Source: Candidatus Sysuiplasma superficiale (GTDB lineage Archaea > Thermoplasmatota > Thermoplasmata > Sysuiplasmatales > Sysuiplasmataceae). From it: a stretch of DNA of 64,000 nt. The translations under genes were made by a program, and so were the position numbers. Within the stretch, counting starts at the first letter, position 1. Each line of letters opens with the position of its first letter. The DNA lies in assembly GCA_019720975.1 (NCBI GenBank), contig JAGVSJ010000001.1, positions 34,400-98,399 of the forward strand, given 5' to 3'. Below, one piece after another: positions 13,586-32,112 of the stretch. The notes beneath the pieces were generated by a model. The model was not told where the DNA came from. It made no database searches and saw only the letters and a program-made list of their open reading frames with translations.

Positions 13586-14740
13586 TCACATACCCTTCAG
13601 TGCCTGCAGCAGGTCGTCCTTGAGATCGTCAATATCTTCGATGCCCGCAGAAAGACGTATCAGCCTGCCGTTTATTCCCAGCCTTCTCCTCTCACTTTCC
13701 GGAACCGAAGCATGGGTCATGAGCGCAGGTATCTCTATCAGCGACTCAACGCCACCGAGGCTCTCAGCAAGTGCAAAAAGCTTCAGTCTCCTGACAAATT
13801 TCCTCGCGTCCGCTTCGGAGCCGCTGATTTCAAAGGACAGCATTCCGCCGAATCCGTCCGCCTGCCTGGATGCCAGGCGGTGCTGGGGGTGCGACTCAAG
13901 TCCAGGGTAGAGCACATGCGATATCTCCTTCCTTTCCTCGAGGAATGATGCCAGTTCGGCTGCATTCTCGCAGTGCCGTTGCATCCTCAGATGCAGTGTT
14001 TTGGCACCCCTCATGACGAGAAATGAGTCGAAAGGGGACGGAACGGCACCTGCAGCATTCTGGTTGAAATGAATACGTTCGAAGAGCGCATCGTCGGAGA
14101 GCATGACAGCGCCGCCAAGGACGTCGCTGTGACCGGCGATATATTTTGTCGTACTGTGAAGGACAATATCAGCTCCCAGCTTCAGCGGATGCTGAAGAAA
14201 CGGACTCATGAACGTATTGTCCACGACTGAGATTGCACCGTGTTCGTGTGCGATTTCGGATATCAGTCGTATATCGCTGACTTTCATGAGCGGATTAGAA
14301 GGACTTTCCATCCAGAGAAGGGCCGTCTTCTTCCTGAATTTCGAGCGGAGCGCGTCCGGATCGGTAAAATCGGCAAAGGTTGTGCTTATGCCGAATCCGG
14401 AAAGGACATTGACAAGAAGCCTCCTTGTCCCGCCATACAGATCCTCCGCCGCAAGGACATTATCGCCTCTCTTCAGCAAAGACAGGAAGAGCGTTGTCTC
14501 GGCGGCAAGGCCTGAGGCAAAAGCAAGCCCATGCTTCGCTCCCTCAAGGGATGCGAGTTTTGTTTCCAGCGCTGTCCTTGTGGGATTGGCGGTGCGCGTA
14601 TAGTCATATCCCCTGGTAGCCCTGCCAGGCTCAGTGCTTGCATAGGTCGTAGACATGTGTATAGGCGAAACCACGTCCCCAAAGCCGTTCCTGCAGTCGG
14701 GTTCCTCACCGCTATGAATTGCCCTTGTGGCAAACTTCAC
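13586..14740 (-). CDS. Cystathionine gamma-lyase/synthase family PLP enzyme
   Basis: YDYTRTANPTR, ESPSNP, VVDNTF, HSTTKYIAGHSD, LAESLGGVESL, RLSAGIE; GTG start with GGTGA RBS. Confidence 0.93.
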   Translation of the reverse strand: MKFATRAIHSGEEPDCRNGFGDVVSPIHMSTTYASTEPGRATRGYDYTRTANPTRTALETKLASLEGAKHGLAFASGLAAETTLFLSLLKRGDNVLAAEDLYGGTRRLLVNVLSGFGISTTFADFTDPDALRSKFRKKTALLWMESPSNPLMKVSDIRLISEIAHEHGAISVVDNTFMSPFLQHPLKLGADIVLHSTTKYIAGHSDVLGGAVMLSDDALFERIHFNQNAAGAVPSPFDSFLVMRGAKTLHLRMQRHCENAAELASFLEERKEISHVLYPGLESHPQHRLASRQADGFGGMLSFEISGSEADARKFVRRLKLFALAESLGGVESLIEIPALMTHASVPESERRRLGINGRLIRLSAGIEDIDDLKDDLLQALKGM

Positions 14741-14799
14741 AGAATCACCTGCAGCTGGATCATCTCATTAGTTAAAGATTGAGTGCCGCTGCTAGTCTG

Positions 14800-15567
14800 T
14801 CATTCAGTCTTCCATTTGGAAAGCCACCATGAAGCCTCCGGCATTCCGCTTGACTCAACAGCCTCCTTGAGTTCCGAGATATCGTAGCCAACCTTCCTGA
14901 AATCAACCGTGAACTCCCCCTTCCTCAACTCCATTATTGCGTATTCAGCTATTACTGGCCTGAAGTGCCTTCCATTTCTCCCCACCCTGTAAGGAAGGCC
15001 GACACTTCCAGGATTGATGAGCGTCATGTGACCGAAGCGACGGAGCATCTGAACGTGTGTGTGGCCTCCGGCACATATGTCGGCGTCACTGGAAGAGAAT
15101 ACCTCACCAAGGAATTCTTCGGAAGATGATGAGTCTATGACCTCAGTGCTGGAACGGGGTGAGCCATGGTAGTAGAGTATGCCGCCTGCCTCCGTATCTT
15201 CCGATATGACAGGGCTGAAGGAAGAGATGAACTTCCTCTCCTGCTCACCGAGGAGGCTTGAACACCAGACATCAACCTTCTCAATCTCCCTGTCCCTGCT
15301 GCTGTTGAACTTCCCGGCTTCAGGCCGCATTATCCTTTCGTCAGTATTTCCCATAACAATGGTGATGTCCCTTGATCTGAGTGTTTTGAGAGTGTAAAGC
15401 GGTGCAGGGCCGGTTGCAGAAACGTCGCCCAGGCACACTGTCCTGTCAGCGCCACTGGACTCTATATCCTCGAGCACTGCATCGAGCGCCACCGGGTTGC
15501 CATGTATGTCTGAAATGAGGGCAATCCTTTCCAGCTCAGCACACCTCCGCCAGCCCAGCGTTACCAT
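14800..15567 (-). CDS. Metallophosphoesterase (calcineurin-like, YfcE/PrpA type)
   Basis: ISDIHGN, CLGD, MGNTD, HGSP, GHTH, NPGSVG; start uncertain. Confidence 0.9.
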   Translation of the reverse strand: MVTLGWRRCAELERIALISDIHGNPVALDAVLEDIESSGADRTVCLGDVSATGPAPLYTLKTLRSRDITIVMGNTDERIMRPEAGKFNSSRDREIEKVDVWCSSLLGEQERKFISSFSPVISEDTEAGGILYYHGSPRSSTEVIDSSSSEEFLGEVFSSSDADICAGGHTHVQMLRRFGHMTLINPGSVGLPYRVGRNGRHFRPVIAEYAIMELRKGEFTVDFRKVGYDISELKEAVESSGMPEASWWLSKWKTE

Positions 15568-15606
15568 TGCCTTCGCGTCCCTTCCTGAGACTGGCCGGAC
15601 GGAACG

Positions 15607-16761
15607 TCAATCGCCTATCACATCCCCCTCACGGAGTATATCGGCAACCTCGGGTCTCAGTATCTCTGACGGGAGCGGTTTACCTTCCGAAAGCAGCTTC
15701 CTGATCCTGGTCTGACTTGTGCTCTCATGGAATTCATCCCCGTGAGGACAGACCTTTCTTGATGCCATGACTCCGCATTTCCTGCAGAAGAAAGTCTCCC
15801 CGTACCTTAGAGGTACGACGCCGACATCCAGCCTGTCAAATATTCTGTGGGCAGCGTATGGATCGTAAAAACTGCCGACACCTGCCTGATCCCGCCCTAT
15901 GATGTAGTGTGAACATCCATAATTTCTTCTGATTATGGCATAGAAGAGGACTGCCTTCGGCCCGGCATATCTCATTGTGATGGAGAGCGATGCGAGCATC
16001 ACACGTTCGCCAGGGTAATAACTTGATACAAACGCGTTGTATGCCCTCATTATAACATCAGGGCGGTAGTCCCCTTTTTTTAGCCGCCCAATGATCGGCT
16101 GGATGAGCAATGCGTCGACGTCCTCTCTCTCAAGTGTCAGACGCTGTATGTACTCATGTGCCGTGTGGGGCGGATTCCTTGCCTGGTACCCGGCAACACT
16201 GTGCCATCCCATCTTTTCAAAGTGTGCCCGTGTCTCCCGCGGGGTGTATTCGAATCCGCCGTGATCGAGCCTGCGCAAAAGAAGCACCTTCCCGCCGGCG
16301 GCAGTGGTGCTGAGGTTCGCAATGTCTGCCACGTTGGGATGCGATCTGTCGGTCGTTCCGTAGACACTCTTTGCAAGTGCATCCCTTGAATATTCAAACT
16401 TCTCCTCGAGCGTGAATATGGCAAATATCTTGCCTGTGCCGTCCGAGAGAGCAAGGGAATCTGACGGTCTTGCAACACTGATTGTGTGCTCATCCTCCCT
16501 GTTCGAGGGTGCGAGAAATACAGGCAGTGTCCATGGGAGGCCGCCGGGCAGTCTTTCGTTTGACAGCACACTCTCGAACTCTTCCCTGCACATGAAGCCT
16601 TCAAGCGGGCTGTATGCACCGGTGCATATCTTTTCCGCATCATACACCTGGTCTATGAACGGATGAAGGACCGGGAGCTCCTTTGCCTCATCTATAAGCT
16701 TCGCCGCATGAGACTCATCAGCGATCCTTTCAACTAGTTTCCCTCCGTACGGTTCTATCAT
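15607..16761 (-). CDS. sat: Sulfate adenylyltransferase (ATP sulfurylase)
   Basis: GAYSPLEGFM, QARNPPHTAHE, MRYAGP, RRNYGCSHYIIGRDQAGVG, Zn site CxxC..C.H. Confidence 0.96.
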   Translation of the reverse strand: MIEPYGGKLVERIADESHAAKLIDEAKELPVLHPFIDQVYDAEKICTGAYSPLEGFMCREEFESVLSNERLPGGLPWTLPVFLAPSNREDEHTISVARPSDSLALSDGTGKIFAIFTLEEKFEYSRDALAKSVYGTTDRSHPNVADIANLSTTAAGGKVLLLRRLDHGGFEYTPRETRAHFEKMGWHSVAGYQARNPPHTAHEYIQRLTLEREDVDALLIQPIIGRLKKGDYRPDVIMRAYNAFVSSYYPGERVMLASLSITMRYAGPKAVLFYAIIRRNYGCSHYIIGRDQAGVGSFYDPYAAHRIFDRLDVGVVPLRYGETFFCRKCGVMASRKVCPHGDEFHESTSQTRIRKLLSEGKPLPSEILRPEVADILREGDVIGD

Positions 16762-16787
16762 TTACATCTGTCTCCTGTGAAACGGCA

Positions 16788-18635
16788 CTAAGGTATGATG
16801 TGATGGACGGGCCTTGTATACAGTGACCATTCCCTGTTTGCCGGATTGTACCGCGATGACACAAATACATGCCAGTTCTCATCATCAACCTTCGGATAAT
16901 CAGCCCTGTAGTAATATCCTGGCCATCTCGTCTCCTTTCTGTGAAGTGTGTGACGGATGACTGCCTCCGCGACCCATATCCTGTGGTTGAGCTCCCACGC
17001 ACGCTGAAGCTGGTGCAGATCCTCCGCACCAATATGCGCGAAATCCTCCTTAAGCATGTTGAGGAGGCTTAGTCCCTTCATAAGCAGCTTCTCATTTGTC
17101 GCGTAGTATGCACTGACACCGCCGCAGTATTCATCCATTATCTTTTCAAGACGCTGCAGCCCCTGTTTTGGATAGAGGAAGTATGGGGAAACGCTGCCCC
17201 TGACAATCATATGCTTCCCGATATCATAGTTCTCAATGGGTTTGTAAACGCTCTGACGTATCGCCTCAACCATTGCGTCGTCTATATCCGGAACCATGTC
17301 CGGGTTGTCTCTTATGTACCTGACGGCTGCCTTTGCCGCCAGCCTTCCCTCTGTGAATGAACCTGAGGAGAACTTGTGTGCGCTGCCACCGACAGTGTCA
17401 CCGGCACCGAAGAGCCCTTTGACGGTTGTCATCCTGTTGTATCCCCACCTGTAGTCCTCTGGAGCGATGTCCTCCGGCCCGCTCACCCATGCGCCCGCGC
17501 AAACTGCATGTGAACCCATCACATAAGGTTCGGACATGGTGAGTTCGGAGGGGTCTTCCTTCGGGTCGATGTTCTGCGATGCCCACATGACAGCCTGCCC
17601 GACTGTCATGTCCAGGAAATCCTCCCACCCAAGTTCCTCCTTTTCCCTGGTGTCAAGTGAACGTTCTGTATGTATGTATATAGGGCCCTTCCCCGCCTTA
17701 ATCTCCTCAAGCATGAGGTGATTTCTAAGGCATGTGGGCATGGGCTTTGCATCCGCGTATTTCGAGCCTACAAACTCGCGGAGCCTGTCAATATGCGCCT
17801 TTTCATACTCCTCCCCGTATGCGTTTGTGGCCACGGATTTAAGCATGAGGAACCACGCGCCTACGGGGCCGTAACCGTCCTTGAACCTGGTGACAACGAT
17901 CCTGTTCTCCATCTGCACCATTTCTGCTCCGACCTGCATCAGCAACGCATAGGCCGAACCGTTGTTCCACGGCGGATACCATGTCCTTCCGGAACCTTCT
18001 CCTACAGAACGGGGCCTGTAGATGTGAGAGGCCCCTGCAGCTCCAACGATCACTGCCTTTGCCCTGAATATGTAGAATGTGCCGTCACGAACGTTGAAAC
18101 CGGCAGCTCCGGCAATCCTGTTCGGATCCCTCGCATCAGGAAGCAGATGTGTTATCATTACCCTGTTGTAAACCTCATCTACCGATTTCTGTGCCGCCTC
18201 CGCAATTATGGGCTTGTACGACTCTCCGTGTATCATTATCTGCCATCTTCCCTCTCTCTGGTAGTGGCCTGTCTCCTTGTTGTACATCATCGGCAGGCCC
18301 CACTCCTCGAACATGTGGACCGTCGCATCGACATGTCTCGCTACGTCATAGAGGAGGTCCTCGCGGACAAGCCCCATAAGGTCACCCCTGGCATATCGGA
18401 CAAAATCTTCCGGCCTGTTTTCCCCCCACCGCATTCCCATGTAGCAGTTTATAGCGGAAAGGCCGTGTGCAACTGCACCGCTCCTCTCGATGTTCGCCTT
18501 TTCGGCGATCACGATCTTTAGGCCGCGCCCCCAGTAGCCCGCCTCCCATGCGGCGCCACAACCGGCAAAACCGCCGCCAACTATCAGTATGTCACAGTCA
18601 ACCTTTTTCACCGAAGATGTCTTCCTGAACGGCAC
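16788..18635 (-). CDS. aprA: Adenylylsulfate (APS) reductase alpha subunit
   Basis: IVGGGFAGCG, RSGAVAHGLSAINCY, WQIMIHGESYK, RFKDGYGPVGAWF, HKFSSGSFTEGR, ETRWPGYYYRADYP. Confidence 0.97.
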   Translation of the reverse strand: MPFRKTSSVKKVDCDILIVGGGFAGCGAAWEAGYWGRGLKIVIAEKANIERSGAVAHGLSAINCYMGMRWGENRPEDFVRYARGDLMGLVREDLLYDVARHVDATVHMFEEWGLPMMYNKETGHYQREGRWQIMIHGESYKPIIAEAAQKSVDEVYNRVMITHLLPDARDPNRIAGAAGFNVRDGTFYIFRAKAVIVGAAGASHIYRPRSVGEGSGRTWYPPWNNGSAYALLMQVGAEMVQMENRIVVTRFKDGYGPVGAWFLMLKSVATNAYGEEYEKAHIDRLREFVGSKYADAKPMPTCLRNHLMLEEIKAGKGPIYIHTERSLDTREKEELGWEDFLDMTVGQAVMWASQNIDPKEDPSELTMSEPYVMGSHAVCAGAWVSGPEDIAPEDYRWGYNRMTTVKGLFGAGDTVGGSAHKFSSGSFTEGRLAAKAAVRYIRDNPDMVPDIDDAMVEAIRQSVYKPIENYDIGKHMIVRGSVSPYFLYPKQGLQRLEKIMDEYCGGVSAYYATNEKLLMKGLSLLNMLKEDFAHIGAEDLHQLQRAWELNHRIWVAEAVIRHTLHRKETRWPGYYYRADYPKVDDENWHVFVSSRYNPANREWSLYTRPVHHIIP

Positions 18636-18654
18636 CTTGCATCAACTCCGCACT

Positions 18655-19116
18655 TTATTTAATTCCCGAAGGCATTTTCCCTGCATCAGGATGCGGCAGT
18701 TCCGGAACCTTCAGATATTCGGGTTCACCTGAGAGGAGCTGGCTCTGAAGTGCCTTGCCTTCAGGCTCGGGCAATGAACGCGATGATTTAATTGAATCCC
18801 ATTTTGTAGTTCTTATCGGGAAGGTGAATTCCTTGATCCGCCCGTCTCTGTACTTGACCTTCCAGGACACTGCTCCCTTCTCCGGCTCCCTGAGCACGGT
18901 CAGCCCGTGGCCAAGAGGCGCAAAGTCAGCGTATCCTCTGACATCAATTGCATGCTCTGGACAGTACTTCACGCATGTGTAGCATTCCCAGCACATTTCA
19001 GGTTCGACGTTGTATGCACGCCGGAACTCAGGGTCTATGTGCATTATGTCACTCGGGCAGAGCTCCACACACTTGCCACATCCGTCACACATCGTCATGT
19101 AAACAAAGGTCGGCAT
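18655..19116 (-). CDS. aprB: APS reductase beta subunit (2x[4Fe-4S])
   Basis: MPTFVYMT.CDGCG.C...CPSDIMHID...RRAYN.EP.MCWECY.CVK.CP; RGYADFAPLGH. Confidence 0.97.
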   Translation of the reverse strand: MPTFVYMTMCDGCGKCVELCPSDIMHIDPEFRRAYNVEPEMCWECYTCVKYCPEHAIDVRGYADFAPLGHGLTVLREPEKGAVSWKVKYRDGRIKEFTFPIRTTKWDSIKSSRSLPEPEGKALQSQLLSGEPEYLKVPELPHPDAGKMPSGIK

Positions 19117-19128
19117 TCACTAACCTCC

Positions 19129-19923
19129 TCAATCCTCTTTTATATAACTGACAGTGGAAGGCGATGGAAGATGGGAGTATCCCTCAGCGGCATCCATCTC
19201 CCTGTGTATGGCATAAACAGGCTTGTAAATGATGTGGGGAAATTTCGACCAGGCCATGGAAAGGAAGGGGAATGCAGTCACAGGCAGATACAGAATCAGT
19301 GCTGCTTCAGTGGCGGTGACAGACCCACTCAGATCCGCCAGTTCCAGAATGAACTGGAATACCACGGCGAACATGATCGAGAAGAGGAACATGTCTGCCC
19401 TGATCGAACGGAAAATGGAATCCCTTTCGGAACGCACATTGACCCTCATAAAGAGCATTATTATTCCTCCCACAAGCAGCATGCCGTCACCGGTGTTTGT
19501 CCCGACTTCAAGCGGATTGGACAGAGGAGAGGCGTTGAGCGTCGGATAGACAAGGGCCCGGAGAAGCATTGAGAGCGCCGCAATGATGAGTCCCCAGAAA
19601 AGAAGAAGATGTGCCACGCGGCGTGTCCTGTCAAGACTCCTGTCCTTGCACGAAGCTATTTCGCCGGAGAATGCAATATTCCTGATCAGGACGCGGAAAA
19701 TCACCGATCCCCCGGACTCGCCCGAAGGTTTGCTCCTTCCATAGCTTCTCTTCCACTCCCTCTCCTGCTGGTAAGACACTATCTTCTTCCTTCCCACAGC
19801 GTCGTACAGCACGCCGAGTACAGCTCCAAGCACGAGTATGAGTACAAAGAGTCTGAAGTCCGTTGCCGAAAAAAACGGGTTTATGTCAACAGCAGCCATC
19901 TTTTGAACCCTCACCAGCATCAT
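19129..19923 (-). CDS. aprM: APS reductase membrane anchor AprM
   Basis: Five TM segments; INPF N-terminus, SGE..C..RRVAHLL..WG, RVNV..E..S.FR..RAD.F, WSKF.H..YKP, E.G..LP.P, as recalled for AprM; directly upstream of aprB. Confidence 0.85.
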   Translation of the reverse strand: MMLVRVQKMAAVDINPFFSATDFRLFVLILVLGAVLGVLYDAVGRKKIVSYQQEREWKRSYGRSKPSGESGGSVIFRVLIRNIAFSGEIASCKDRSLDRTRRVAHLLLFWGLIIAALSMLLRALVYPTLNASPLSNPLEVGTNTGDGMLLVGGIIMLFMRVNVRSERDSIFRSIRADMFLFSIMFAVVFQFILELADLSGSVTATEAALILYLPVTAFPFLSMAWSKFPHIIYKPVYAIHREMDAAEGYSHLPSPSTVSYIKED

Positions 19924-19965
19924 TCATACTTTACTTATACTTATTCAATAAAACACCCCATAATC

Positions 19966-19976
19966 TGACATTGTCC
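19966..19976. promoter_or_regulatory. Candidate operator TGACATTGTCC (10/11 match to palindrome TGACAWTGTCA) in the aprM/lrp divergent promoter
   Basis: Near-identical motifs at 21961 and 22415 in the other sulfur-cluster promoters. Confidence 0.5.
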
Positions 19977-20144
19977 TGAAAACTGTAACGCTATTCACTC
20001 AATTAAAGGTTTCAGACTTAAAATCGTGGCTCTGAAGGCCTGCACACGGCATTCGTATGATGACTGCAGAGGTGCTAAGCATGCCAAATTTCAGACAAAT
20101 GATTAATACAGGATAAGGGTAACCGGGTTTAGAGAAATATTCAC

Positions 20145-20642
20145 ATGAGAAGAGGTAAAGTGAAGGCGGACAGCGGAATCGGGCTAGATTTGCTGGATGT
20201 GAACATCATCAGGGAACTGCAGGCGGATGCCCGCATATCATACCGTGCCCTCGCCAGAAAACTTGGCGTGAGCGTAACAACCGTGAGCGGAAGGGTCAGG
20301 AGAATGAAGGATACAGGCCTAATAAGGAGCTTCACGATCATTGTAAACCCTGAGAAGGCAGGGAACGTTTACTGCACAGCACTCTACATCAGGACAGAAA
20401 ACGGTTCGGACCCGAGAAAGGTTGGCGAGGCTGTATCAGGGATAAAGGGGATATGCTACACTTACCACACACTGGGAATATACAACCTGATTGCACTTGG
20501 CAGCGCCCCAAACAAGGATGACTTTTCCTCAATGATAAGGCAGATAAATGGGCTCAAGGGAGTCAAGGAGGTAATACCGTCTGTCGTCCTCGATACAATC
20601 AAGGAGGATCCCAAGCACATAATAGCACTCGCAGGCAGATAA
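20145..20642 (+). CDS. Lrp/AsnC family transcriptional regulator
   Basis: LDLLDVNIIRELQADARISYRALARKLGVSVTTVSGRVRRM HTH plus C-terminal RAM domain; divergent from aprM. Confidence 0.93.
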   Translation: MRRGKVKADSGIGLDLLDVNIIRELQADARISYRALARKLGVSVTTVSGRVRRMKDTGLIRSFTIIVNPEKAGNVYCTALYIRTENGSDPRKVGEAVSGIKGICYTYHTLGIYNLIALGSAPNKDDFSSMIRQINGLKGVKEVIPSVVLDTIKEDPKHIIALAGR

Positions 20643-20657
20643 ACCCGCGGGCGCTCT

Positions 20658-21155: not shown

Positions 21156-21433
21156 TAATCCGGAATCTCAAAGTCAATTCTCTCCATTATGTCTACCTTC
21201 CTCACTGGAATCACATTCCGGTAGGCTGGAAACATATCCGCGCCATATCTCTCTGCAAGCTTCGCATTGTCTTTGAGCAGTGCCCTCTCTCCGAGGAACA
21301 GAAAATCGTCGTCCTCCCGTATAAGCATGCCTGCAGTACGGAAAACAGCCCTGTATTCGCCACCTTGAATCCCATGCGAGCCTTCAGGCCTGAACGGCTT
21401 CGGGTCCGAGTACCTGATGTAACACACCTTCAA
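21155..21433 (-). CDS. Hypothetical protein (92 aa)
   Basis: TTG start; stop overlaps the next start; sits between dsrE and the PTP-like gene on the same strand. Confidence 0.65.
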   Translation of the reverse strand: MKVCYIRYSDPKPFRPEGSHGIQGGEYRAVFRTAGMLIREDDDFLFLGERALLKDNAKLAERYGADMFPAYRNVIPVRKVDIMERIDFEIPD

Positions 21434-24520: not shown

Positions 24521-25585
24521 ATGGGCAAGCAGCGCTTTCTCGTCATAGGCGGGGGACCCGCCGGCCTCAGTGCCGCGCTGGATCTGCATGACGCAGGCAT
24601 GGATGTGGAACTTGTTGAGAAGGAGTCTTTCCTCGGCGGAACACCAAAGAAGCTGCATTACAGCCTCATAGCACCAGATCTCAAGCCAGTTGAGGAGGTG
24701 CTTGACCCTCTGATAAAGAAGGTGGAGGGTGCAGGGATAAGCAGGAAGCTCAATACAACTGTTTCCTCAGCAACCATAAGGGACGGTGTTGTCACTGTGA
24801 AATACGCATCTTCCGACGGCAAACAGGCTGGTGGCGGTGATTTCGATGCAGTAATACTTGCAACAGGATTCACGCACTGGGACCCGCACAAGAAGTATGA
24901 GTACGGTTATGGGCTCTACCCCGATGTCATCGACTTCAAGGATTTTGAAGCGATGCTGTCATCGGACAGGCTCGAAAGGCCATCCGACGGGAAGATGCCG
25001 AAGAGGATTGGCTGGCTGCTCTGCGTGGGCTCGAGGGACAGGCAGGTGGGAAAATTCTACTGCTGCAGGCTTGGCTGTGCTGTATCGATAAAACAGGCAA
25101 TGGAAGTGAAGAAAAGACACCCTGAGATTGACACCTATGTCTACTACATGGACATAAGAACCTATGGTTTCTGGGAGGACCAGCTGTACTGGAAATCGAT
25201 GGAGGAATACAACGTCAAATTCATTAGGGGGAGGATAGGCGCAATAAGCAGAGGTGAGAACGGTAGCCTGATCGCCATGGCCGAGGACACGATACTGCAG
25301 AGGCCAAGCGAAGTTCCGTTTGACATGCTCATCCTGACCACGGGAATGGAGGCGAGCAGCGGAACGGTGGAGATGGCAAAACTGTTCGGTGTGGATATTG
25401 AGGAGCATGGCTTTGTAAAGCCGCTTCAGGCAGACAGCATGCCCGTGCACACCAATGTGGACAGTGTATTTGTTGCCGGCACAGCCACCGGACCCAAGGC
25501 AATTCCGGATGCAATAACCGAGGGTTCGGCAGCTGCAATGAAGGCAATGAATTTTGTGAGAAGGAAGGTGCCACTGGTTGCCTGA
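24521..25585 (+). CDS. hdrA: sHdrA flavoprotein subunit (short type)
   Basis: VIGGGPAG, LATGF, CVGSRDRQVG..YCCR.GC, YYMDIRT.G, GPKAIPDAI; start ATG 24518 or 24521. Confidence 0.93.
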   Translation: MGKQRFLVIGGGPAGLSAALDLHDAGMDVELVEKESFLGGTPKKLHYSLIAPDLKPVEEVLDPLIKKVEGAGISRKLNTTVSSATIRDGVVTVKYASSDGKQAGGGDFDAVILATGFTHWDPHKKYEYGYGLYPDVIDFKDFEAMLSSDRLERPSDGKMPKRIGWLLCVGSRDRQVGKFYCCRLGCAVSIKQAMEVKKRHPEIDTYVYYMDIRTYGFWEDQLYWKSMEEYNVKFIRGRIGAISRGENGSLIAMAEDTILQRPSEVPFDMLILTTGMEASSGTVEMAKLFGVDIEEHGFVKPLQADSMPVHTNVDSVFVAGTATGPKAIPDAITEGSAAAMKAMNFVRRKVPLVA

Positions 25586-26288
25586 GATCATGCTCAACAG
25601 CTACAGGATAAGGGATATCGCGGATGCTGTTCTTGGCAGGAACTGGGAGGAAGAATTGCAGCAGTATCTTACAATGCTTGAGAGAAAGGGAGTGATTATA
25701 AGGGAGATAGTGGAGGCTGAGGAAAGGGAGAGAACAGATTACGAATCATTCATCTCACTCTTCTTTCCTGCAAGGAGATACAGAAGGGAGATACTCTCAT
25801 CAAACAAACCGGAAGTGCTCGATGACGCGATATCTTCGCTGCGCAACTGCGCGGAAACACCTGCCCTGACCGAGCTGAAATTCGCACAAATGTCCGGAGC
25901 TCCGGCCGCTGTTTTGCGCGACATGGCATACGAGGGAATGCACTTCATGTTTCCGGAAAGATACTGTCTTGCAACAAGATGGGTCTGGAATCCGGAAAGA
26001 GGGACAGGAGCGCTGCGGGATGTGATCAGAGCTGAAAAAAGGGACATGAGCTTTGAGGAAAGGCAGAAGGTGCTCAGGAACATACTCTCATCCATAAAGG
26101 TTCATGGTTACGTGTTCAGAGACTCCTTTCCACTGGATCTCATGTGTGCGCTGTACTACTCCCAGGAAGTAATAGGTGCGAAGGACCACTCAATGAACGC
26201 AGGCGGCATGGAGGCGCTCTTTCCCAGCCATGGCGCTGTTTCCGTGATGATACTGGGTCTGAGAGGTTTGAAATATGCCAATCCATGA
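25578..26288 (+). CDS. sHdrH (conserved hypothetical between hdrA and hdrC2)
   Basis: Position in hdrC1B1A-hyp-C2B2; HFMFPERYCLATRWVWNP..GTGAL motif. Confidence 0.8.
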   Translation: MPEIMLNSYRIRDIADAVLGRNWEEELQQYLTMLERKGVIIREIVEAEERERTDYESFISLFFPARRYRREILSSNKPEVLDDAISSLRNCAETPALTELKFAQMSGAPAAVLRDMAYEGMHFMFPERYCLATRWVWNPERGTGALRDVIRAEKRDMSFEERQKVLRNILSSIKVHGYVFRDSFPLDLMCALYYSQEVIGAKDHSMNAGGMEALFPSHGAVSVMILGLRGLKYANP

Positions 26289-26982
26289 AAAGAACCTGAT
26301 TGAAGAGGACAGGATACTAGAAAAGGAAAAGGCTGAGCTTGAGGGCAGGGACGTATCAGGCCAGTGGAATACATTCATAGAACAGCGCATTCTCTCCGAG
26401 TACGAGCCTGAGATATTTCAGGAGATATACTCAAGGCCTGAAGGTCGGACGATAAACAGGTGCTGGCAGTGCGGCACCTGCACTTCAGGATGCTGCATGC
26501 ACACGGATTTCGGGCTGAGGGAGTTCAATCCGAGATACTTCATCTACCTTGCACGGATCGGTGACGAAGAAGAACTGAAAAAACAGAAGGATGTCATATG
26601 GCGCTGTCTGGCGTGCAATAAATGTGTTGAGCGCTGTCCGAAGGATGTGAGGGTTGAAGAGGTTGTCCATGCCATAGACTCCTACATGAGAAAGAAGGGG
26701 TGGGCTCCTGACAACCCTGCCAGCAGATGGGATGATGAATACCTCAGGAATGTCATGAAGTCAGGGATACTGGATGAGATATCCCTCCTGCGCAATTACA
26801 TCAGGGACGAGAAGATAGAGGAATTTGATACGCACTACATGATGAAGATGGCTGTAAAGCTGCTGAAGACCGGAAGGATGAGGACAGGGCCCGTAAGACA
26901 CAGGACGAAGGGCTGGAAGAGGATAAGGAAGGTTGCTGAAGAAATACTGGAGAAGGATGGTTATGAACTCACAAAAGGATGA
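26275..26982 (+). CDS. hdrC2: sHdrC2
   Basis: MPIHEK start, RCWQCGTCTSGC, WRCLACNKCVERCPKDV. Confidence 0.92.
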   Translation: MPIHEKNLIEEDRILEKEKAELEGRDVSGQWNTFIEQRILSEYEPEIFQEIYSRPEGRTINRCWQCGTCTSGCCMHTDFGLREFNPRYFIYLARIGDEEELKKQKDVIWRCLACNKCVERCPKDVRVEEVVHAIDSYMRKKGWAPDNPASRWDDEYLRNVMKSGILDEISLLRNYIRDEKIEEFDTHYMMKMAVKLLKTGRMRTGPVRHRTKGWKRIRKVAEEILEKDGYELTKG

Positions 26983-27874
26983 ACTGGCATTCTATCCCGG
27001 CTGTTCCCTCGACGGAATGGGGAAGGCATACAGGAAGACGTCGGAGCTGGTGAACCGCGACCTCGGGATTGAGATGAGGGAGATAGTGAATTACAACTGC
27101 TGCGGCGCGGCGGAGGTGAAGACCGCAAGCTACGACCTTTCAGTTTTCCTGCCCGGCAGGAATCTTGCGCTCGCAAAGCAGATGGGATCAAGTGCTGTGG
27201 TTGCACCCTGCAACGGCTGTGTCTTCTCGCTCGGCAGGGCGAACCGCGCGATAGCGGAGGATTCAGGGACGCGGGAGAGGATCAATTCATATCTGAACCG
27301 TGCGGGAGCTCCCTCGTATGAAGGGGATGTCGAGGTGAAACACATAATAGAGGTCATTTACGAGAGGGCGGGAATTGAAGGCGTGAAGAAGAAGGTAAGG
27401 CGCCCGCTTACCGGCATACATGTGGCCTGCTATTATGGCTGTCTGTACACCAGGCCGAAGATCTATACAGGTGCGGGGACAGGCAGGAAGGATAACCCGG
27501 AACACCCGCACTTCATGGATGATCTGATGTCCGCGATAGGCGCAGAAGTGGTGGACTTTCCGCTCAAGACTGTCTGCTGCGGCGGAGGGCATGCAATAGC
27601 AGACAGGGAGGTGTCCGTGGGGTTCAGCGCTGCAATACTGAATGAGGCGGCAAGGGCGGGGGCCGATTTTGTTGTGACAATGTGCCCGCTCGGGCACATG
27701 AACATAGAGGCGAACATTCCTGCGATAGTGAAGCAGTACGGAATGGAGGTCGTGAGGCCTGTGGTCTACTTTACGCAGCTGATGGCGCTCGCTTTCGGTC
27801 ACAGCAGGAGGGAGGCGAGGCTTTCCGACAATTTCTCCGAAGCGGGAAAAGTTTTACAGGAGAAGGGATTCTAG
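26963..27874 (+). CDS. hdrB2: sHdrB2
   Basis: FYPGCSL, NCCGA, APCNGC, YYGCLY.RP, KTVCCGG, CPLGH; start re-assigned to ATG 26963. Confidence 0.92.
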   Translation: MNSQKDELAFYPGCSLDGMGKAYRKTSELVNRDLGIEMREIVNYNCCGAAEVKTASYDLSVFLPGRNLALAKQMGSSAVVAPCNGCVFSLGRANRAIAEDSGTRERINSYLNRAGAPSYEGDVEVKHIIEVIYERAGIEGVKKKVRRPLTGIHVACYYGCLYTRPKIYTGAGTGRKDNPEHPHFMDDLMSAIGAEVVDFPLKTVCCGGGHAIADREVSVGFSAAILNEAARAGADFVVTMCPLGHMNIEANIPAIVKQYGMEVVRPVVYFTQLMALAFGHSRREARLSDNFSEAGKVLQEKGF

Positions 27875-27886
27875 TATGGTGATTGT

Positions 27887-28336
27887 ATGGCATTCATAAA
27901 CGGGTGCGAACTGCCGGATGATCTGTTCTACTTTGTTGAGGGGAATCAGATGTCCTGGGTGAGGTTCGAAGGGAATGAGGCGGTCATTGGTCTGACAGAT
28001 CCTGCACAGACCAGAGCGGGGAAGATTGTGGTGATAAGGGTAAAGGGAGAGGGAACTACCAGACCGAAGGGAAAACCACTTGCCACCATTGAAAGCGGAA
28101 AGTGGGCCGGCGCCGTTATATCGCCTCTCACAGGAACGGTTGTAAGGGCAAATGAACAGCTGGCATCCAGTCCCGAACTGATAAACAACGATCCGTACGG
28201 ACAGGGCTGGATTGTGCGCATTAGTGTCGCGAATCAGGAGGAAAAGGCGGCCCTGCTGAATGGCGAGAAGGCGATGGAGAAATACAGGGAACTTATTGCG
28301 AAGGACAACATACGATGCATGAGATGCAAGCAGTGA
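27887..28336 (+). CDS. lbpA: Lipoate-binding protein LbpA (GcvH-like)
   Basis: IESGKW lipoyl-lysine motif, INNDPYGQGW, N-terminal GCELP and C-terminal CMRC cysteines typical of LbpA. Confidence 0.9.
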   Translation: MAFINGCELPDDLFYFVEGNQMSWVRFEGNEAVIGLTDPAQTRAGKIVVIRVKGEGTTRPKGKPLATIESGKWAGAVISPLTGTVVRANEQLASSPELINNDPYGQGWIVRISVANQEEKAALLNGEKAMEKYRELIAKDNIRCMRCKQ

Positions 28337-28337
28337 G

Positions 28338-28724
28338 GTGATGTGTCTGGCGGATGTTGAAGGCAAAAAACTTCTGATAGTGATGACAACAGGGCCGGAG
28401 GATCCGGAGAAGACGTATGCGCCGTTCTATACAGCCGCGCTTTCGGCTGCGATGGAGGTTGACACTTCAATGTACTTCCTCATGCACGCCCCCAAACTTC
28501 TCAAAAACGGTTCAGCGGAGCAGGTGAAACTCAAGAAAGGGGGAACGCTCAAGCAGTTCATAAACATGGCTCTCGAGGGAGGGGTCAAATTCTACGCATG
28601 CGAGGAGAGCCTGAGGAGCCTCTGTGAAATTGACCCCGCTGATGTTATCGAAGGTGTGAAGATAGTGGGCTCATCGACACTGGCGGATCTCGCCCTTGAA
28701 GCTGATTCGGTACTGAGCTTCTGA
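28338..28724 (+). CDS. DsrE-family protein
   Basis: MTTGPEDP...APFY.A..AAM, FYACEESL conserved cysteine, ADSVLSF. Confidence 0.85.
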   Translation: MMCLADVEGKKLLIVMTTGPEDPEKTYAPFYTAALSAAMEVDTSMYFLMHAPKLLKNGSAEQVKLKKGGTLKQFINMALEGGVKFYACEESLRSLCEIDPADVIEGVKIVGSSTLADLALEADSVLSF

Positions 28725-28731: not shown

Positions 28732-29853
28732 ATGGAGGAGCTTGGCGTCATCAGGCTCGGGGCAGTGGACGGCTACACGATGACCAATGCATTCGCCGTG
28801 TTGGCCGGTTCAGTAAGTGAGGGGGAGAGGGGTGACACACTTGTTGTCTGTCATTCCGAGAAACCTTTCGCCAATGTTGGCTTCCACCAGGAGGCTCTGG
28901 AGGAGATTGATATAGACTACTGCACAAGGAATTCCATTCCAGTTGTCAGGAGACTGATAGGCGGAGGAGCGATTGCTGACGGGCCCTGGGAGGAGGATTA
29001 TTTCTTCATAACATCCCTGGATTCACCGGTGACCTCCGGCACAATCGGTGACTATTACGGCAGGATGCTCGAACCCGTGGCTGCAGTGCTCGGCAGATTT
29101 GGCGTGTATGCCTCCAGGCAGGGATTGAATGACCTTGCAGTGAATGGGAGAAAGATAAGCGCCAACGGGGCCGTTGACATTGAAGGCGCAAGGGTTCTCA
29201 CGGGGGACATACTGCTTGACCTCGACATCAACATCATGGCGGGCATACTGAAGGTGCCGGATGCCAAATTCAGGGACAAGATGGCTGCATCCATGAGCGA
29301 GCACCTGACGTCAATGCGCATCGAACTGGGGAGGGAGATAAAGAGGGAGGATGTCGCAGAATCATTGATCGAGGCTTTCGGAAGGGGATACAGCAGAGTT
29401 CAGGAAACATCACTTTCAGACTACGAAAAGAAGAGACTGAAAGGTCTTATAGACGAACACAGCAAACCGGAATGGGTTTTTTCAAGGGACAGCGTACGCA
29501 GCGAACTGATGTCGGACAGGCGCGTCGTAAAGATCAAGGAGGATACGTTCCTCTGCCAGGCTGATTACAAGGCACAGAAGCTCATCAGGGTGACAATGCT
29601 TGCGGAGGACGGGAGGATTGCGAACATCATCATATCAGGTGACTTCTTCACTGTGCCGGTGAGCTGGTCCGTTGGAAGGATTGAGAATGCACTTGCGGGG
29701 ACGGAGCTGACACAGAGTGCAATCATCGCGAAGATCACGAAGGTTCTGTCAGAGGAGCATGTAACTGTTCTGGGCGCATCGCCTGAGGACTTCACACGCG
29801 CAATACTCGAGGCGGCAAAACATCCTGCCATCAGGAGGGGCGGGGGCACTTGA
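28732..29853 (+). CDS. Lipoate:protein ligase (LplA-like with C-terminal accessory domain)
   Basis: NVGFHQ...EID, VVRRLIGGGA, NDL.VNGRKISANGA, C-terminal ISGDFF domain. Confidence 0.9.
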   Translation: MEELGVIRLGAVDGYTMTNAFAVLAGSVSEGERGDTLVVCHSEKPFANVGFHQEALEEIDIDYCTRNSIPVVRRLIGGGAIADGPWEEDYFFITSLDSPVTSGTIGDYYGRMLEPVAAVLGRFGVYASRQGLNDLAVNGRKISANGAVDIEGARVLTGDILLDLDINIMAGILKVPDAKFRDKMAASMSEHLTSMRIELGREIKREDVAESLIEAFGRGYSRVQETSLSDYEKKRLKGLIDEHSKPEWVFSRDSVRSELMSDRRVVKIKEDTFLCQADYKAQKLIRVTMLAEDGRIANIIISGDFFTVPVSWSVGRIENALAGTELTQSAIIAKITKVLSEEHVTVLGASPEDFTRAILEAAKHPAIRRGGGT

Positions 29854-30944
29854 CTGATTCAGACCCTGCTGAAGCAATATCGCGTGTTCCGCATCCGGAG
29901 GAGAATGCGACTCTCGCCAGCATGGGATGGATCTGGAATGTTGATGTGAAAGAGCGGAAGGTGAAGGTCACTGTTTCTGTGCCGGGTAAATACCCCTTCA
30001 CGTCTGTGATTGAAAACGACATAACGGCAGTACTTGAGGAGAAAGGTTACAGCGCAGAGGTGGAGTTCGCACAGGCGGCTGAGAAGGAAGAGCCGGGAAA
30101 GGTGAAGAGGAAGGTGGAGCTGCCTGTCGTCGGACAGGGCGGGGGAACTCACACCGGCATTGATGCGCTCCCGAGGCAGGGCATACGGAACATAATAGCT
30201 GTAGCATCCGGCAAGGGCGGTGTCGGAAAGAGCTTCATGACGGCTGTTCTGGGTACGCATCTCTCAATGCTCGGCTACAGGACAGCGATAATAGATGCCG
30301 ACATAACGGGACCCTGCATCTCAAGGATGTTCGGTCTCTCTGCGCTTCCAGGCATGGGGGAGGACGGGAAGATTGAACCACTCGTCTCACAGGGCGGGCT
30401 GCGCATCATGTCCATAGACGTTATAATGGACAGGTTCAGAACGCCGCTGATATGGAGAGGGCCGCTCATAAACAGCGCGATCAGAGGGCTGTTCTCTGAG
30501 ACAAGGTGGGGGGACATACATTATCTGCTGGTTGACCTTCCGCCGGGAACTTCGGATGCACCGCTCACTGTGTTCCAGTCAATGAAGCCGGACGGAGTGG
30601 TCTTCGTCACAAGTCCCATGGAGATAGCGAGATCTGTTGTTTCAAGGGCTGTGTCGATGGCGAAGGAGATGCATGTGCCTGTGATTGGTTTCGTGGAGAA
30701 CATGTCACATCTCGTGCTTCCGGGCAACAAGACAATCAATATCTTCGGCAGGGAGAGCAGCGAAAGGGCCGCTGCTGAGTTCGGGATACCCTTCCTCGGT
30801 TCCATTCCAATAGACACAGCGGTGAGTGCGCTCTCGGACCGGGGAGAGATCGAACTGTACAGGAACAGCGAACTGTTCACCATAATAAGAAGGATGAGGT
30901 TCAGACTCGCAGAACTTCATTCTGCGCGCAAGGAGAGTGTGTGA
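29850..30944 (+). CDS. Mrp/ApbC/NBP35 Fe-S cluster carrier ATPase with N-terminal DUF59-like domain
   Basis: AVASGKGGVGKS, DADITGP, WRGP, DLPPGTSD, GFVENMS. Confidence 0.9.
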   Translation: MTDSDPAEAISRVPHPEENATLASMGWIWNVDVKERKVKVTVSVPGKYPFTSVIENDITAVLEEKGYSAEVEFAQAAEKEEPGKVKRKVELPVVGQGGGTHTGIDALPRQGIRNIIAVASGKGGVGKSFMTAVLGTHLSMLGYRTAIIDADITGPCISRMFGLSALPGMGEDGKIEPLVSQGGLRIMSIDVIMDRFRTPLIWRGPLINSAIRGLFSETRWGDIHYLLVDLPPGTSDAPLTVFQSMKPDGVVFVTSPMEIARSVVSRAVSMAKEMHVPVIGFVENMSHLVLPGNKTINIFGRESSERAAAEFGIPFLGSIPIDTAVSALSDRGEIELYRNSELFTIIRRMRFRLAELHSARKESV

Positions 30945-31139: not shown

Positions 31140-31142
31140 CCG

Positions 31143-31487
31143 GTGCGTATCCTGTGTCTCCTCTTCACCTCGCCGGTGCAGCACAGGGGACCGGAGCACA
31201 TGCTCAAGCTTGTGGAGGAGATGACAGGAAAGGGGAACAGAGTAGAGTTGTTTTTGCTCGGGGACGGGGTATACAATTCATCAGCCGCCCTTGCAACAAA
31301 GAAAGGTGCCCCGGTGGTTCTGGCTCTGTCGCAGATGCGGGGAATAAGGATAACCGATTGCTCAACATGCGCTGGAATGCGCGGTGTCGATGAGCTGATT
31401 GGCAATGCACGCCTCGGAACGCTCGAGGATCTGACTGAGGAAATGGAGAGAGCCGATGTTATTCTCAGTTATACCGGTGAGGAATGA
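31143..31487 (+). CDS. DsrE/TusD-like sulfur relay subunit
   Basis: LFLLGDGVY, DCSTCAGMRG, GTLEDL....ADVILSY. Confidence 0.8.
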   Translation: MRILCLLFTSPVQHRGPEHMLKLVEEMTGKGNRVELFLLGDGVYNSSAALATKKGAPVVLALSQMRGIRITDCSTCAGMRGVDELIGNARLGTLEDLTEEMERADVILSYTGEE

Positions 31488-31828
31488 TGAATGCCACTGT
31501 TGTTCTGACCAAACCTCCTCTTTCCACATCCCATTTCACCGAAGCACTGCGGGTCTCCCTCATGCTTTCCGCGCTCGGCCATCGGGTGAACCTTGTATTG
31601 ATTGATGAAGGTGTCCTTATACTGCTGGAAAAATCGGGAAGCAGTTTCGGCAACGAAACACTGCGGAATGCGGAGGGTGTTGAGGGTCTCGAAATACTGA
31701 TACACAGAGGGTCTCTTGAACGTCTTCTCCATGGACAGGACAGAGACTGCGGCAGGAAGGGCTACAGGATAGTGGATTCGGCAGAACTCGCCCGTATATT
31801 GCTCTCAACAAAGACGCTGGTGTTCTGA
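31484..31828 (+). CDS. DsrF/TusC-like subunit
   Basis: LTKPP.....EALR, LVLIDEGV, SLERL; follows the DsrE-like gene. Confidence 0.7.
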   Translation: MMNATVVLTKPPLSTSHFTEALRVSLMLSALGHRVNLVLIDEGVLILLEKSGSSFGNETLRNAEGVEGLEILIHRGSLERLLHGQDRDCGRKGYRIVDSAELARILLSTKTLVF

Positions 31829-32112
31829 TGGCTGCGGTAATATACCTGAGGAGAAGGCTCAACCCGGAATCGCAGTGGATGGATGTCATAGCCGAGATAT
31901 GTTCCATCACTGGCACAACGATAATACTTGAGGGTGCCTCACTCTTTTCACTCGACAGCATCAGAAGCGCTCTGGAAAGAAGAGGTGCCACGGCGCGCAT
32001 CTGTGCCGTTGATGGCGGATACCGGGCCATCGCTGATAAACAGGCTGATATTGTTGCGTACCAGGACATCGCCTCACTCATCGAGATGGCTGATAGTGTC
32101 ATCTCCTTCTGA
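31828..32112 (+). CDS. DsrH/TusB-like subunit
   Basis: 94 aa; C-terminal VAYQDIASLIEMADSVISF resembles DsrH; third gene of the trio. Confidence 0.55.
   Translation: MAAVIYLRRRLNPESQWMDVIAEICSITGTTIILEGASLFSLDSIRSALERRGATARICAVDGGYRAIADKQADIVAYQDIASLIEMADSVISF

Follow-up and report, generated by a model that had tools for sequence, protein, structure and literature searches.

The 64-kb stretch of DNA analysed here (the window) covers positions 34400–98399 of contig C1, which is 227,735 bases long and belongs to a metagenome-assembled genome (MAG; G000) of 2.06 Mb in 100 contigs, estimated to be 95.2% complete and 5.6% contaminated. It carries one contiguous block of sulfur genes, in which the genes for a sulfur-oxidising heterodisulfide reductase-like (sHdr) complex and its lipoate-binding protein LbpA, together with several sulfur carriers, lie beside those for ATP sulfurylase (sat) and for adenosine 5'-phosphosulfate (APS) reductase with a membrane anchor (aprMBA). 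The gene map was built from an open reading frame (ORF) listing and from Pfam and NCBIfam scans, and these scans recovered every gene class that the initial annotation had placed in a single block at 13586–32112. The right end of that span, 32112, was retained. The left end was not: the gene at 13586–14740 encodes a pyridoxal phosphate (PLP) enzyme of Cys/Met metabolism (PF01053, E 1e-147), so that it was rejected as sat, and it was also rejected as a member of the cluster, beside which it stands in locus L005 only and not in G020 and G042, two genomes of the same genus. Since the gene after it (14800–15567) codes for a metallophosphoesterase, the sulfur block proper runs from 14800 (or 15607) to 32112. 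Four of its genes had not been named before, namely those for an Lrp/AsnC regulator, a degenerate protein resembling low-molecular-weight protein tyrosine phosphatases (LMW-PTP), a protein of 92 amino acids (aa) and a third small protein at 31828–32112.

The APS module occupies the minus strand. The sat product (15607–16761; PF01747, PF14306) has the PUA-like and ATP-sulfurylase domains and passes the subfamily cut-off (NF003166, 405.9 bits against 387). The alpha subunit of APS reductase, encoded by aprA (16788–18635), scores 972 bits with TIGR02061 (cut-off 642) and 744 bits to the solved AprA 2fja/1jnr, presumably that of Archaeoglobus fulgidus, and the beta subunit, encoded by aprB (18655–19116), scores 178 bits with TIGR02060 (cut-off 136), matches PF12139, the AprB C-terminal domain (E 3e-28), and has two CxxCxxCxxxC motifs, the curated equivalog cut-offs being passed by both. 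Directly upstream of aprB lies the gene for an AprM-like membrane anchor (19129–19923), whose product has four to five hydrophobic segments and matches the C-terminal membrane part of the QmoC model only (50 bits against a cut-off of 300). It was compared over a sample of 80 loci, 19 archaeal and 61 bacterial, which are those most similar in AprA in a species-representative collection and were taken with 10-kb flanks, and in 60 of these 61 bacterial loci aprB is directly preceded by a gene whose product is 29–38% identical to it. As judged from sequence it is of the AprM kind, being polytopic, encoded upstream of aprB and homologous to the AprM of sulfur oxidisers.

On the plus strand, 22478–27874 holds six genes in the order shdrC1-B1-A-hyp-C2-B2: shdrC1 (22478–23245; Fer4 families and HdrC models), shdrB1 (23242–24510; a CCG domain with one CCG motif), shdrA (24491–25585; FAD/pyridine-nucleotide-disulfide oxidoreductase families, with HdrA models matching in part), the 'hyp' gene for sHdrH (25578–26288), shdrC2 (26275–26982; Fer4 families) and shdrB2 (26933–27874; two CCG domains, and TIGR03288 at 174 bits, under its cut-off). 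sHdrH matches no family and was assigned by its place between hdrA and hdrC2, a position kept in relatives at 27–56% identity. C2 and B2 are separate genes (there is no fused B3) and etfAB-emo is absent, which makes the complex type I under the definitions in PMC11094781; this and the other papers below are cited for individual passages. The cofactor motifs of that type are all present, with exactly four cysteines in the 364 residues of sHdrA, two CxxCxxCxxxC motifs each in sHdrC1 and sHdrC2, and CCG motifs in sHdrB1 and sHdrB2. HdrB1 is 56–58% identical to HdrB of Sulfolobales archaeon HS-7, Acidianus sp. HS-5, Sulfodiicoccus acidiphilus and Acidithiobacillus ferrooxidans, and the complex is therefore taken as orthologous to that of known sulfur oxidisers. 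It is followed by lbpA (27887–28336; PF01597, GCV_H, E 4e-36), in whose product Lys72, within ESGKW, is conserved in 11 of 11 homologues, and, about 400 bp downstream of lbpA, by the gene for an LplA-type lipoate-protein ligase with fused catalytic and C-terminal domains (28732–29853; PF21948, PF10437; TIGR00545 at 133 bits, under its cut-off) and by that for an Mrp/ApbC-type Fe-S cluster carrier (29850–30944; PF10609, E 3e-74; PF01883; NF041136 at 256 bits, under its cut-off). Neither lipS1 nor lipS2 was evident within the cluster, the rest of the genome not having been searched for either.

Sulfur-carrier genes stand on both sides of these six genes, and the conservation of their carrier residues was counted among homologues from related loci. 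The tusA gene (22036–22269, plus strand; PF01206, E 3e-20) encodes the CPLP motif, and Cys15 of its product is invariant (18/18 homologues); a minus-strand ORF at 22026–22280 was rejected as its antisense. There are four DsrE-family genes. One, on the minus strand, encodes a DsrE2-like carrier (21462–21902; PF13686, E 4e-26; Cys105 conserved in 29/29), and another, on the plus strand between lbpA and the ligase gene, a DsrE3-like carrier (28338–28724; PF02635, E 2e-16; Cys88 conserved in 20/20). The other two, also on the plus strand, encode a DsrE/TusD-like subunit (31143–31487; PF02635, E 2e-7, with the TusD model under its cut-off; Cys73 and Cys76 conserved in 11/11) and a DsrF/TusC-like subunit (31484–31828; PF02635, E 9e-7; TIGR03010, E 2e-6, under its cut-off), and are followed by the gene for a putative DsrH/TusB-like third subunit (31828–32112, plus strand), which has no sequence-family match and was assigned by fold alone. 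Its AlphaFold2 (AF2) model has a predicted local distance difference test score (pLDDT) of 89, and its best Foldseek matches are DsrEFH (2hy5, chains B/C), YchN (1jx7) and TusBCD (2d1p_C), at E 1e-3 to 3e-3 and TM scores of 0.59–0.69; phmmer searches of the DsrH-like and the DsrE-like proteins against the PDB gave nothing below E 0.1. Because the model of the third protein resembles chains of DsrEFH and TusBCD, 31143–32112 looks like a DsrEFH/TusBCD-type trio. It shares with the known systems three consecutive small genes with overlapping stops and starts, a first product with two invariant cysteines and a third with the predicted DsrH/TusB fold; it differs in lying under the family cut-offs throughout and in that the genome has neither a DsrC/TusE acceptor (PF04358, no match in G000; the Escherichia coli control matched) nor DsrAB, so that the sulfur acceptor of the trio must be something else. 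Outside the window, at about 212.0–213.5 kb of C1, the gene for a 280-aa tandem rhodanese (L106:1048–1890) is convergent with one for a 218-aa fusion of a GcvH/LbpA-like with a TusA domain (L106:1893–2549), and this LbpA-TusA fusion beside a thiosulfate-sulfurtransferase-like gene may be the point where sulfur enters the pathway. A ThiS-ThiF-rhodanese gene on contig C90 was rejected as a part of sulfur oxidation since it is biosynthetic.

Between the two divergent operon sets lies the Lrp/AsnC-family gene (20145–20642, plus strand; PF13412, PF13404, PF01037), which is divergent from aprM and is kept beside aprM in L004, L006 and L011 and 3' of sat in L061, and is also present in G020 and G042. 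A near-palindromic, operator-like motif, YTRACATTGTM, occurs at 19965–19975 in the aprM/asnC gap (equivalents in G020, L086:3349, and G042, L089:3594), at 21962–21972 in the dsrE2/tusA gap (G020, L086:5377; G042, L089:1538; L092:10927) and at 22414–22424 upstream of shdrC1 (G020, L086:5876; G042, L089:968). These three matches, all in the promoter gaps of the cluster, are the only ones in the window, against 0.26 expected and with none of 100 shuffles reaching three, a count that is biased because the pattern was written after the sites were seen; independent support comes from the occupation of the same three gaps in G020 and G042 and of one in L092. Other short repeats in 19880–22500 appeared to be chance pairs. 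The Lrp/AsnC protein is the obvious candidate for a regulator acting at these sites, and the two operon sets would then probably form one regulon under it. The linkage anticipated in the initial annotation is thus plain from the contiguous genes and from the relatives, and the co-regulation proposed with it gains some support from the shared motif in three gaps.

Three accessory genes accompany the block. The metallophosphoesterase (14800–15567, minus strand, downstream of sat) is YfcE/SapH-like (PF12850, E 1.5e-18), and its homologue adjoins sat or aprM in L004, L005, L007, L008, L012 and L014 and also in G020 and G042. Its best sequence match in the PDB is 3qfm (E 5e-20), which we take to be the Ap4A hydrolase/phosphodiesterase of Streptococcus pneumoniae; if this is right, it is conceivable that the enzyme turns over APS or a related adenylate. 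The degenerate phosphatase-like protein (20658–21155, minus strand; PF01451, E 1e-8; nearest PDB matches 4egs and the YwlE phosphatases) has a P-loop that reads VGxxNxxAS in eight of eight homologues, so that the catalytic Cys and Arg are absent. The conserved 92-aa protein h92 (21155–21433, minus strand) has no Pfam or NCBIfam match; its 15 homologues all adjoin dsrE2 or tusA and share 19 invariant residues, with no conserved Cys. It is modelled as a small beta-barrel (AF2, pLDDT 89), for which Foldseek gave no PDB match at E <= 1e-3, VIA-align only generic Sm/SH3-like small barrels (Z <= 6.5), and the ESM Atlas only unnamed, mostly viral clusters at chance-level scores of 0.90–0.91.

Further upstream in the window, 131–5773 encodes a six-gene membrane complex akin to hydrogenase-4, Mbh and complex I, with HyfB/F-like antiporter subunits and others that resemble NuoB and NuoD. 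The large subunit is devoid of CxxC motifs and hence of NiFe-binding cysteine pairs, and the whole looks like an energy-converting complex of the Mbx/Ehr type rather than a hydrogenase. No counterpart of it adjoins the cluster in G020 or G042.

Recurrence of the block and relationships of AprA

The linkage was followed in 401 genomes of the class, including G000 and the unpublished G097 and G301, the last two with sub-threshold AprA matches only. AprA exceeded the curated cut-off in 40 of the 401, and sHdrB1 was found at E <= 1e-40 to that of the window in 19, all of them among the 40 AprA-positive genomes and belonging to two families, f1, which is the window's own (8/10), and f10 (11/59). 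In 16 of these 19 genomes a single contig carries hdrB1 and aprA at a distance of 1–15 kb, and in the remaining three, which are fragmented assemblies, they are on different contigs. Furthermore, sHdr core genes occur in the flanks of seven of the 19 archaeal loci in the AprA-selected sample, namely L004, L008, L012 and L014 (Thermoplasmata), L009 and L050 (Nitrososphaeria/Thaumarchaeota) and L061 (Marsarchaeota), and five further archaeal loci have sHdr accessory genes only; in the flanks of the 61 bacterial loci no sHdr gene was found. Given this recurrence in many archaeal MAGs, the arrangement is not a peculiarity of this genome, and the linked block is a recurrent archaeal arrangement of Thermoplasmata, Marsarchaeota and those Nitrososphaeria that are not ammonia-oxidising archaea (non-AOA).

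The nearest named AprA records are L005 (Thermoplasmata archaeon, 87% identity) and L004 (Methanomassiliicoccales archaeon, 86%), the latter with almost the same gene order as the window, and the next group, at 71–75%, bears the labels Candidatus Sysuiplasmataceae, Thermoplasmata, Marsarchaeota, Thermoprotei and Nitrososphaeria. Since the nearest named records are Thermoplasmata and Methanomassiliicoccales MAGs, the description of the host as a Thermoplasmatota-like archaeon, which had been made from the letters of the window, is supported, and G000 moreover has an archaeal 16S fragment, two genes for transcription factor B (TFB) and, among eight tRNA genes on C1, one for tRNA-Cys that is interrupted by an intron at the canonical 37/38 position; Rfam and ARAGORN scans of the window itself gave no matches. 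Going by its nearest named relatives, we judge the host to be an acid-mine archaeon of the class Thermoplasmata.

Other families of the class show another partner for the Apr module. In G380 (C7), G352 (C5), G126 (C4), G284 (C20), G224 (C14) and G200 (C6), aprBA lies 3–10 kb from a tandem DsrAB-like pair, and two HdrA-like (QmoAB-like) genes come after it in G380 and G126. Within one archaeal class, the module thus has as its physical neighbour either sHdr or DsrAB-like genes, the latter in some genomes together with QmoAB-like ones. Two genomes of family f10, G265 and G229, have two aprBA copies each; on G265:C12 the DsrAB-like pair (4825–6666), one aprBA (26515–28299), hdrB1 (40616) and a second, deep-branching aprBA (42913–44697) directly beside hdrC1 stand on one contig. 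Loci of the f10 type (L069, L075, L079, L080, L081, G090, G104, G265) have no AprM homologue upstream of aprB as searched with the window's query, and mrp, DsrE/F-like genes, the 92-aa gene, tusA and dsrE2 are found there instead.

Beyond its close archaeal relatives, the AprA of the window is 69–73% identical to that of Burkholderiales and of Thiobacillus, Sulfuriferula, Pelomicrobium, Sedimenticola and other sulfur oxidisers, and its identity to the in-class AprA found with QmoAB-like genes (the type of G380, G126, G352 and G284) is about 52%. A quick maximum-likelihood tree (LG+G4) was made from 49 rows, namely all 28 archaeal sequences, that of the window and every third bacterial one (20/61), rooted on two QmoAB-linked sequences; its bacterial rows come from the sequences nearest to an archaeal query, and it holds no named sulfate-reducer or Chlorobi sequences. 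In this tree the window AprA stands apart from the QmoAB-linked rows, and by sequence it belongs with the oxidative, AprM-linked enzymes. The 20 bacterial AprM-type sequences form one clade (SH-aLRT 97); its sister group is a clade of Thermoplasmata, and it lies within a wider set of archaeal clades. When the 23 archaeal AprM-type rows were constrained to group with one another, the log-likelihood fell by 45 units, an arrangement disfavoured at a p-value of 0.033 in the approximately unbiased (AU) test, for which the clade was named after the tree had been seen.

Proposed pathway and alternative explanations

The window had been noted to hold no dsrAB, qmo or sox genes, and markers of all three were also missing from G000 as searched. 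No match to PF01077 (NIR_SIR, the siroheme sulfite reductase family) was found in this 95% complete genome, where the control matched 11 of 14 genomes and the family is present in 17 of the 39 other AprA-positive genomes of the class; no second HdrA-like gene was found by tblastn (E <= 1e-5), so that there is no QmoAB; and G000 has no SoxZ. The QmoABC complex is likewise not recognisable, since two HdrA-like subunits are wanting and the AprM-like protein resembles the membrane part of QmoC only. Reductive dsrAB together with qmoABC elsewhere in the genome, which the initial annotation had named as a sign that Apr and Sat work reductively, were thus looked for in G000 and neither was found. There is also no molybdopterin oxidoreductase in G000, the sulfur-reductase and polysulfide-reductase types included. 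A cytochrome bd oxidase is present. Among the 19 genomes with both sHdr and Apr, 14 have no NIR_SIR protein at all. In addition, G000:C24:91332–91763 (L110) encodes, in a 195-aa ORF, a small molybdoenzyme of the sulfite-oxidase family, which could be a second, direct route of sulfite oxidation.

From the gene identities, the conserved active-site residues, the physical linkage and its recurrence in relatives, and with no reductive partner detectable, we infer a self-contained pathway in the cytoplasm for the complete oxidation of sulfane sulfur to sulfate, with sulfite and APS as intermediates, and we put its probability at about 0.72. The route from elemental sulfur (S0) through sulfite and APS to sulfate that had been proposed at the outset is therefore upheld as the most likely reading, because a sulfite-producing sHdr lies next door and nothing recognisable would reduce sulfite further. 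In the proposed scheme, persulfide sulfur, which the tandem rhodanese elsewhere on the contig may feed in, would be relayed along TusA, DsrE2, DsrE3 and the DsrEFH-like trio to the type I sHdr complex (C1B1A-H-C2B2), which with lipoylated LbpA would oxidise the bound sulfur to sulfite; the ligase of the cluster would lipoylate LbpA and Mrp would supply Fe-S clusters. AprBA would then convert sulfite and AMP into APS and deliver two electrons, by way of the AprM-like anchor, to the quinone pool, from which the cytochrome bd oxidase would re-oxidise the quinol, and Sat would form ATP and sulfate from APS and pyrophosphate by substrate-level phosphorylation. The direction of flux and the path of the electrons in this scheme are deduced from the genes, as are the link between regulator and operator and any role of the three accessory proteins.

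Several points weigh against this scheme. AprBA and Sat are reversible enzymes, and no heme-copper oxidase was found in G000; this and the other absences rest on a MAG that is 95% complete and 5.6% contaminated. A tandem DsrAB-like pair is present in four of the 18 other genomes with sHdr and Apr (G217, G229, G235 and G265), and G020, of the same genus, has a single NIR_SIR protein of 630 aa. In G052, of the same family, aprMBA-sat occurs together with a DsrAB-like pair, and sHdrB1 was not found there with the window's query; the Apr module is hence able to combine with one partner or the other. In the RNA library X17 the only contigs were small ones of low depth, on aprM and dsrE2, which may derive from DNA carry-over; most of the cluster was uncovered, and three of the seven matching records extended over only 31–34 letters. 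The operator-like pattern, moreover, was derived from the very sites counted. Finally, passages in PMC11094006 and PMC10833072 read aprAB-sat in Thermoplasmata and non-AOA Nitrososphaeria as sulfate reduction, the latter describing the aprAB carriers as aerobes or facultative anaerobes.

These points bear on two other uses of the genes. AprBA-Sat might serve to detoxify sulfite, or to gain ATP from it, in an organism that is no aerobic lithotroph but a heterotroph, with sulfur compounds serving only as a supplement or undergoing disproportionation; the sulfite would come from thiosulfate, organosulfur compounds or sHdr, and the electrons would go to an anaerobic sink, for example sulfur reduction by the Mbx/Ehr-like complex. 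We regard this as unlikely. It would suit a genome in which the cytochrome bd oxidase is the only terminal oxidase of the two kinds sought, in which a hydrogenase-like complex with a CxxC-free large subunit lies 8 kb upstream and a tandem rhodanese on the same contig could split thiosulfate, and it has a counterpart in Hyphomicrobium, whose sHdr is presented in the cited part of PMC10332631 as a supplementary electron source for a heterotroph. However, a full sHdr-LbpA set with five carrier genes suggests a sustained flux beyond detoxification alone, G000 has none of the molybdoenzymes that reduce sulfur or polysulfide, and the Mbx-like complex is not kept next to the cluster in G020 or G042. 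Less probable again, with only a small chance of being right, is a reductive or assimilatory use, in which sulfite would be made from sulfate through activation and reduction by Sat and AprBA, with sHdr serving another purpose. The reversibility of both enzymes would allow it, class relatives link aprBA to QmoAB-like and DsrAB-like genes, with G052 as an example in the window's own family, and the literature just cited reads such genes as dissimilatory sulfate reduction. Yet without a NIR_SIR protein nothing recognisable in G000 could take sulfite further, the Qmo-like HdrA paralog and DsrC are missing as well, the AprA is of the AprM-linked type of sulfur oxidisers, and in 16 of the 19 genomes it is linked to an sHdr that produces sulfite.

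An artefact of assembly or binning, by which a fragment of a bacterial sulfur oxidiser was joined to or binned with an archaeal genome, deserves almost no credence beside the complete oxidation of sulfane sulfur. It might be suspected from an AprA that is about 70% identical to proteobacterial enzymes, from the 5.6% contamination of the MAG and from flanking genes of types common in bacteria, namely a class II, bacterial-type lysyl-tRNA synthetase (LysRS; 11417–12925; TIGR00499, 626 bits) and a bacterial-type phosphoenolpyruvate carboxylase (PEPC; 32180–34843; PF00311), both of which are kept beside the cluster in relatives. On the other side, the cluster lies on a 228-kb contig that carries the tRNA-Cys with the canonical intron, and its tetranucleotide profile agrees with that of the other contigs at r = 0.944, inside the genome's own range (5th percentile of its 20-kb pieces, 0.917). 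The order from the metallophosphoesterase through PEPC is identical in G020 and G042, at 50–91% protein identity for the cluster genes, the DsrH-like gene excepted (29–31%); in G042 the synteny goes on rightward for seven further genes and the shared order covers about 27 kb of flank, and LysRS adjoins the cluster also in a second genus of the family (L091, L104). The closest relatives of AprA and HdrB1 are archaeal MAGs. Moreover, ten public runs from six studies contain the 10-kb stretch from sat to hdrA near letter-for-letter (0.87–0.98 of the words sampled); these are without exception mine-tailings or mine-drainage metagenomes, and four may be the source sample; X7 and X8 were counted once because their figures are identical, possibly one data set filed twice. 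In runs not flagged as source, single contigs extend across 19471–24657 (X5) and 14806–20867 (X7) with 4–5 differing letters. The conserved order in two genomes of the genus and the independent contigs bridging the junctions show that the contig is not chimeric, which answers the check that had been asked of it; a chimera or a bacterial contaminant is a very unlikely origin of the cluster, and the suspicion of an artefact is already largely refuted.

Relation to known systems

A literature search gave no description of a linked archaeal sHdr-AprMBA-Sat cluster, within a scope that did not take in supplementary tables that may list these genomes (PMC11094781, PMC10833072, PMC11094006, PMC10504309) or the paper on the order Sysuiplasmatales, which may describe the genes. 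The earlier statement that the combination is not known from characterised archaea thus agrees with the literature searched; the arrangement is not unique, since it recurs in public archaeal MAGs. In the passages cited, PMC9326234 names Sat/AprAB as a possible sulfite-oxidising route in general, PMC8551704 draws a Sulfolobales model with Hdr, LbpA, APS reductase and ATP sulfurylase and says that biochemical evidence is lacking, PMC10504309 treats AprM in bacteria only, and PMC9287336 proposes sulfite oxidation in another order of Thermoplasmatota by an enzyme of the sulfite-oxidase family, not by Apr; the linkage is not mentioned in the parts of PMC12220078, PMC13500833 and PMC10332631 consulted. 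A 2024 mBio paper (PMC11323534) gives the Sulfolobaceae, in the passage cited, as the only archaea known to oxidise elemental sulfur. All parts of the block belong to known families and the logic of the pathway is known from bacteria. What appears to be new, going by the genes, is a Thermoplasmata host for type I sHdr, its linkage with aprMBA-sat, conserved across several lineages of archaea, the operator-like motif that the promoter gaps share and the conserved accessory genes.

In its boldest form, the evidence might be read as an old archaeal invention that has moved as a module among acidophilic archaea (Thermoplasmata, Marsarchaeota and non-AOA Nitrososphaeria), whose Apr part was the source of the proteobacterial AprM-type APS reductase and which forms a single Lrp-controlled regulon with three undescribed accessory proteins. 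Among these, the SapH-like phosphoesterase would act on APS or a related adenylate, the dead LMW-PTP fold would bind an anion or a persulfide, and the 92-aa beta-barrel would be the third. We hold this joint reading to be rather doubtful; because the sampling of the AprA tree is biased and the test was post hoc, the archaeal origin of the bacterial module is kept only as the boldest possibility. If it were true, these lineages would be sulfur-oxidising archaea outside the Sulfolobaceae.

The block offers a complete, physically linked gene route from sulfane sulfur to sulfate in two families of Thermoplasmata-like archaea that are abundant in mine tailings and drainage. If the oxidative pathway is true, these archaea would contribute directly to the generation of acid and sulfate in mine waste, the common scoring of archaeal aprAB-sat as sulfate reduction would misassign them, the tight linkage would provide a compact gene set for the heterologous reconstitution of the whole pathway, and the conserved accessory genes would be candidates for missing parts of the sHdr and APS pathways.

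Compared with the type I sHdr-LbpA systems of Hyphomicrobium denitrificans, Aquifex aeolicus, Acidithiobacillus and Sulfolobales, the block shows the same succession of genes, shdrC1B1A-hyp-C2B2 and then lbpA, and likewise includes a lipoate ligase of its own and carriers of the TusA and DsrE types whose cysteines are conserved. It differs in its Thermoplasmata-like host, in the direct linkage to aprMBA-sat, in the additional DsrEFH-like trio, degenerate LMW-PTP-like gene and 92-aa gene, and in its regulator, which is of the Lrp/AsnC family, whereas the bacterial sHdrR is described, in the source passage, as ArsR-type. In a survey of GTDB R207, archaeal type I sHdr was reported only from Thermoproteota and only type II from Thermoplasmatota, according to the part of PMC11094781 cited here. 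With the sat-aprMBA of proteobacteria such as Allochromatium vinosum and Thiobacillus, the window shares an AprM-like anchor directly upstream of aprBA, 69–73% identity in AprA and 62–72% in AprB, and a Sat in one transcription unit, as in A. vinosum (PMC3779200, in the passage cited). The differences are the archaeal host, the attached metallophosphoesterase, a sulfite producer that is the neighbouring sHdr and not a reverse dissimilatory sulfite reductase (rDsr), and the position of sat immediately downstream of aprA; in the flanks of nine of the 61 bacterial loci a sat-like gene was found (34–41% identical), none adjacent at high identity. The reductive Sat-AprBA-QmoAB(C) and DsrAB systems, of the Archaeoglobus type and of G380, G126, G352 and G284, have the AprBA and Sat enzyme families in common with the window, whereas the in-class relatives carry two HdrA-like genes after aprA and a DsrAB-like pair 3–10 kb off, neither of which G000 has. 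If the oxidative route works in the way proposed, a single class in which aprBA has either sHdr or DsrAB-like genes (in some genomes QmoAB-like ones too) as its partner would be a natural setting in which to compare what determines the direction of APS reductase.

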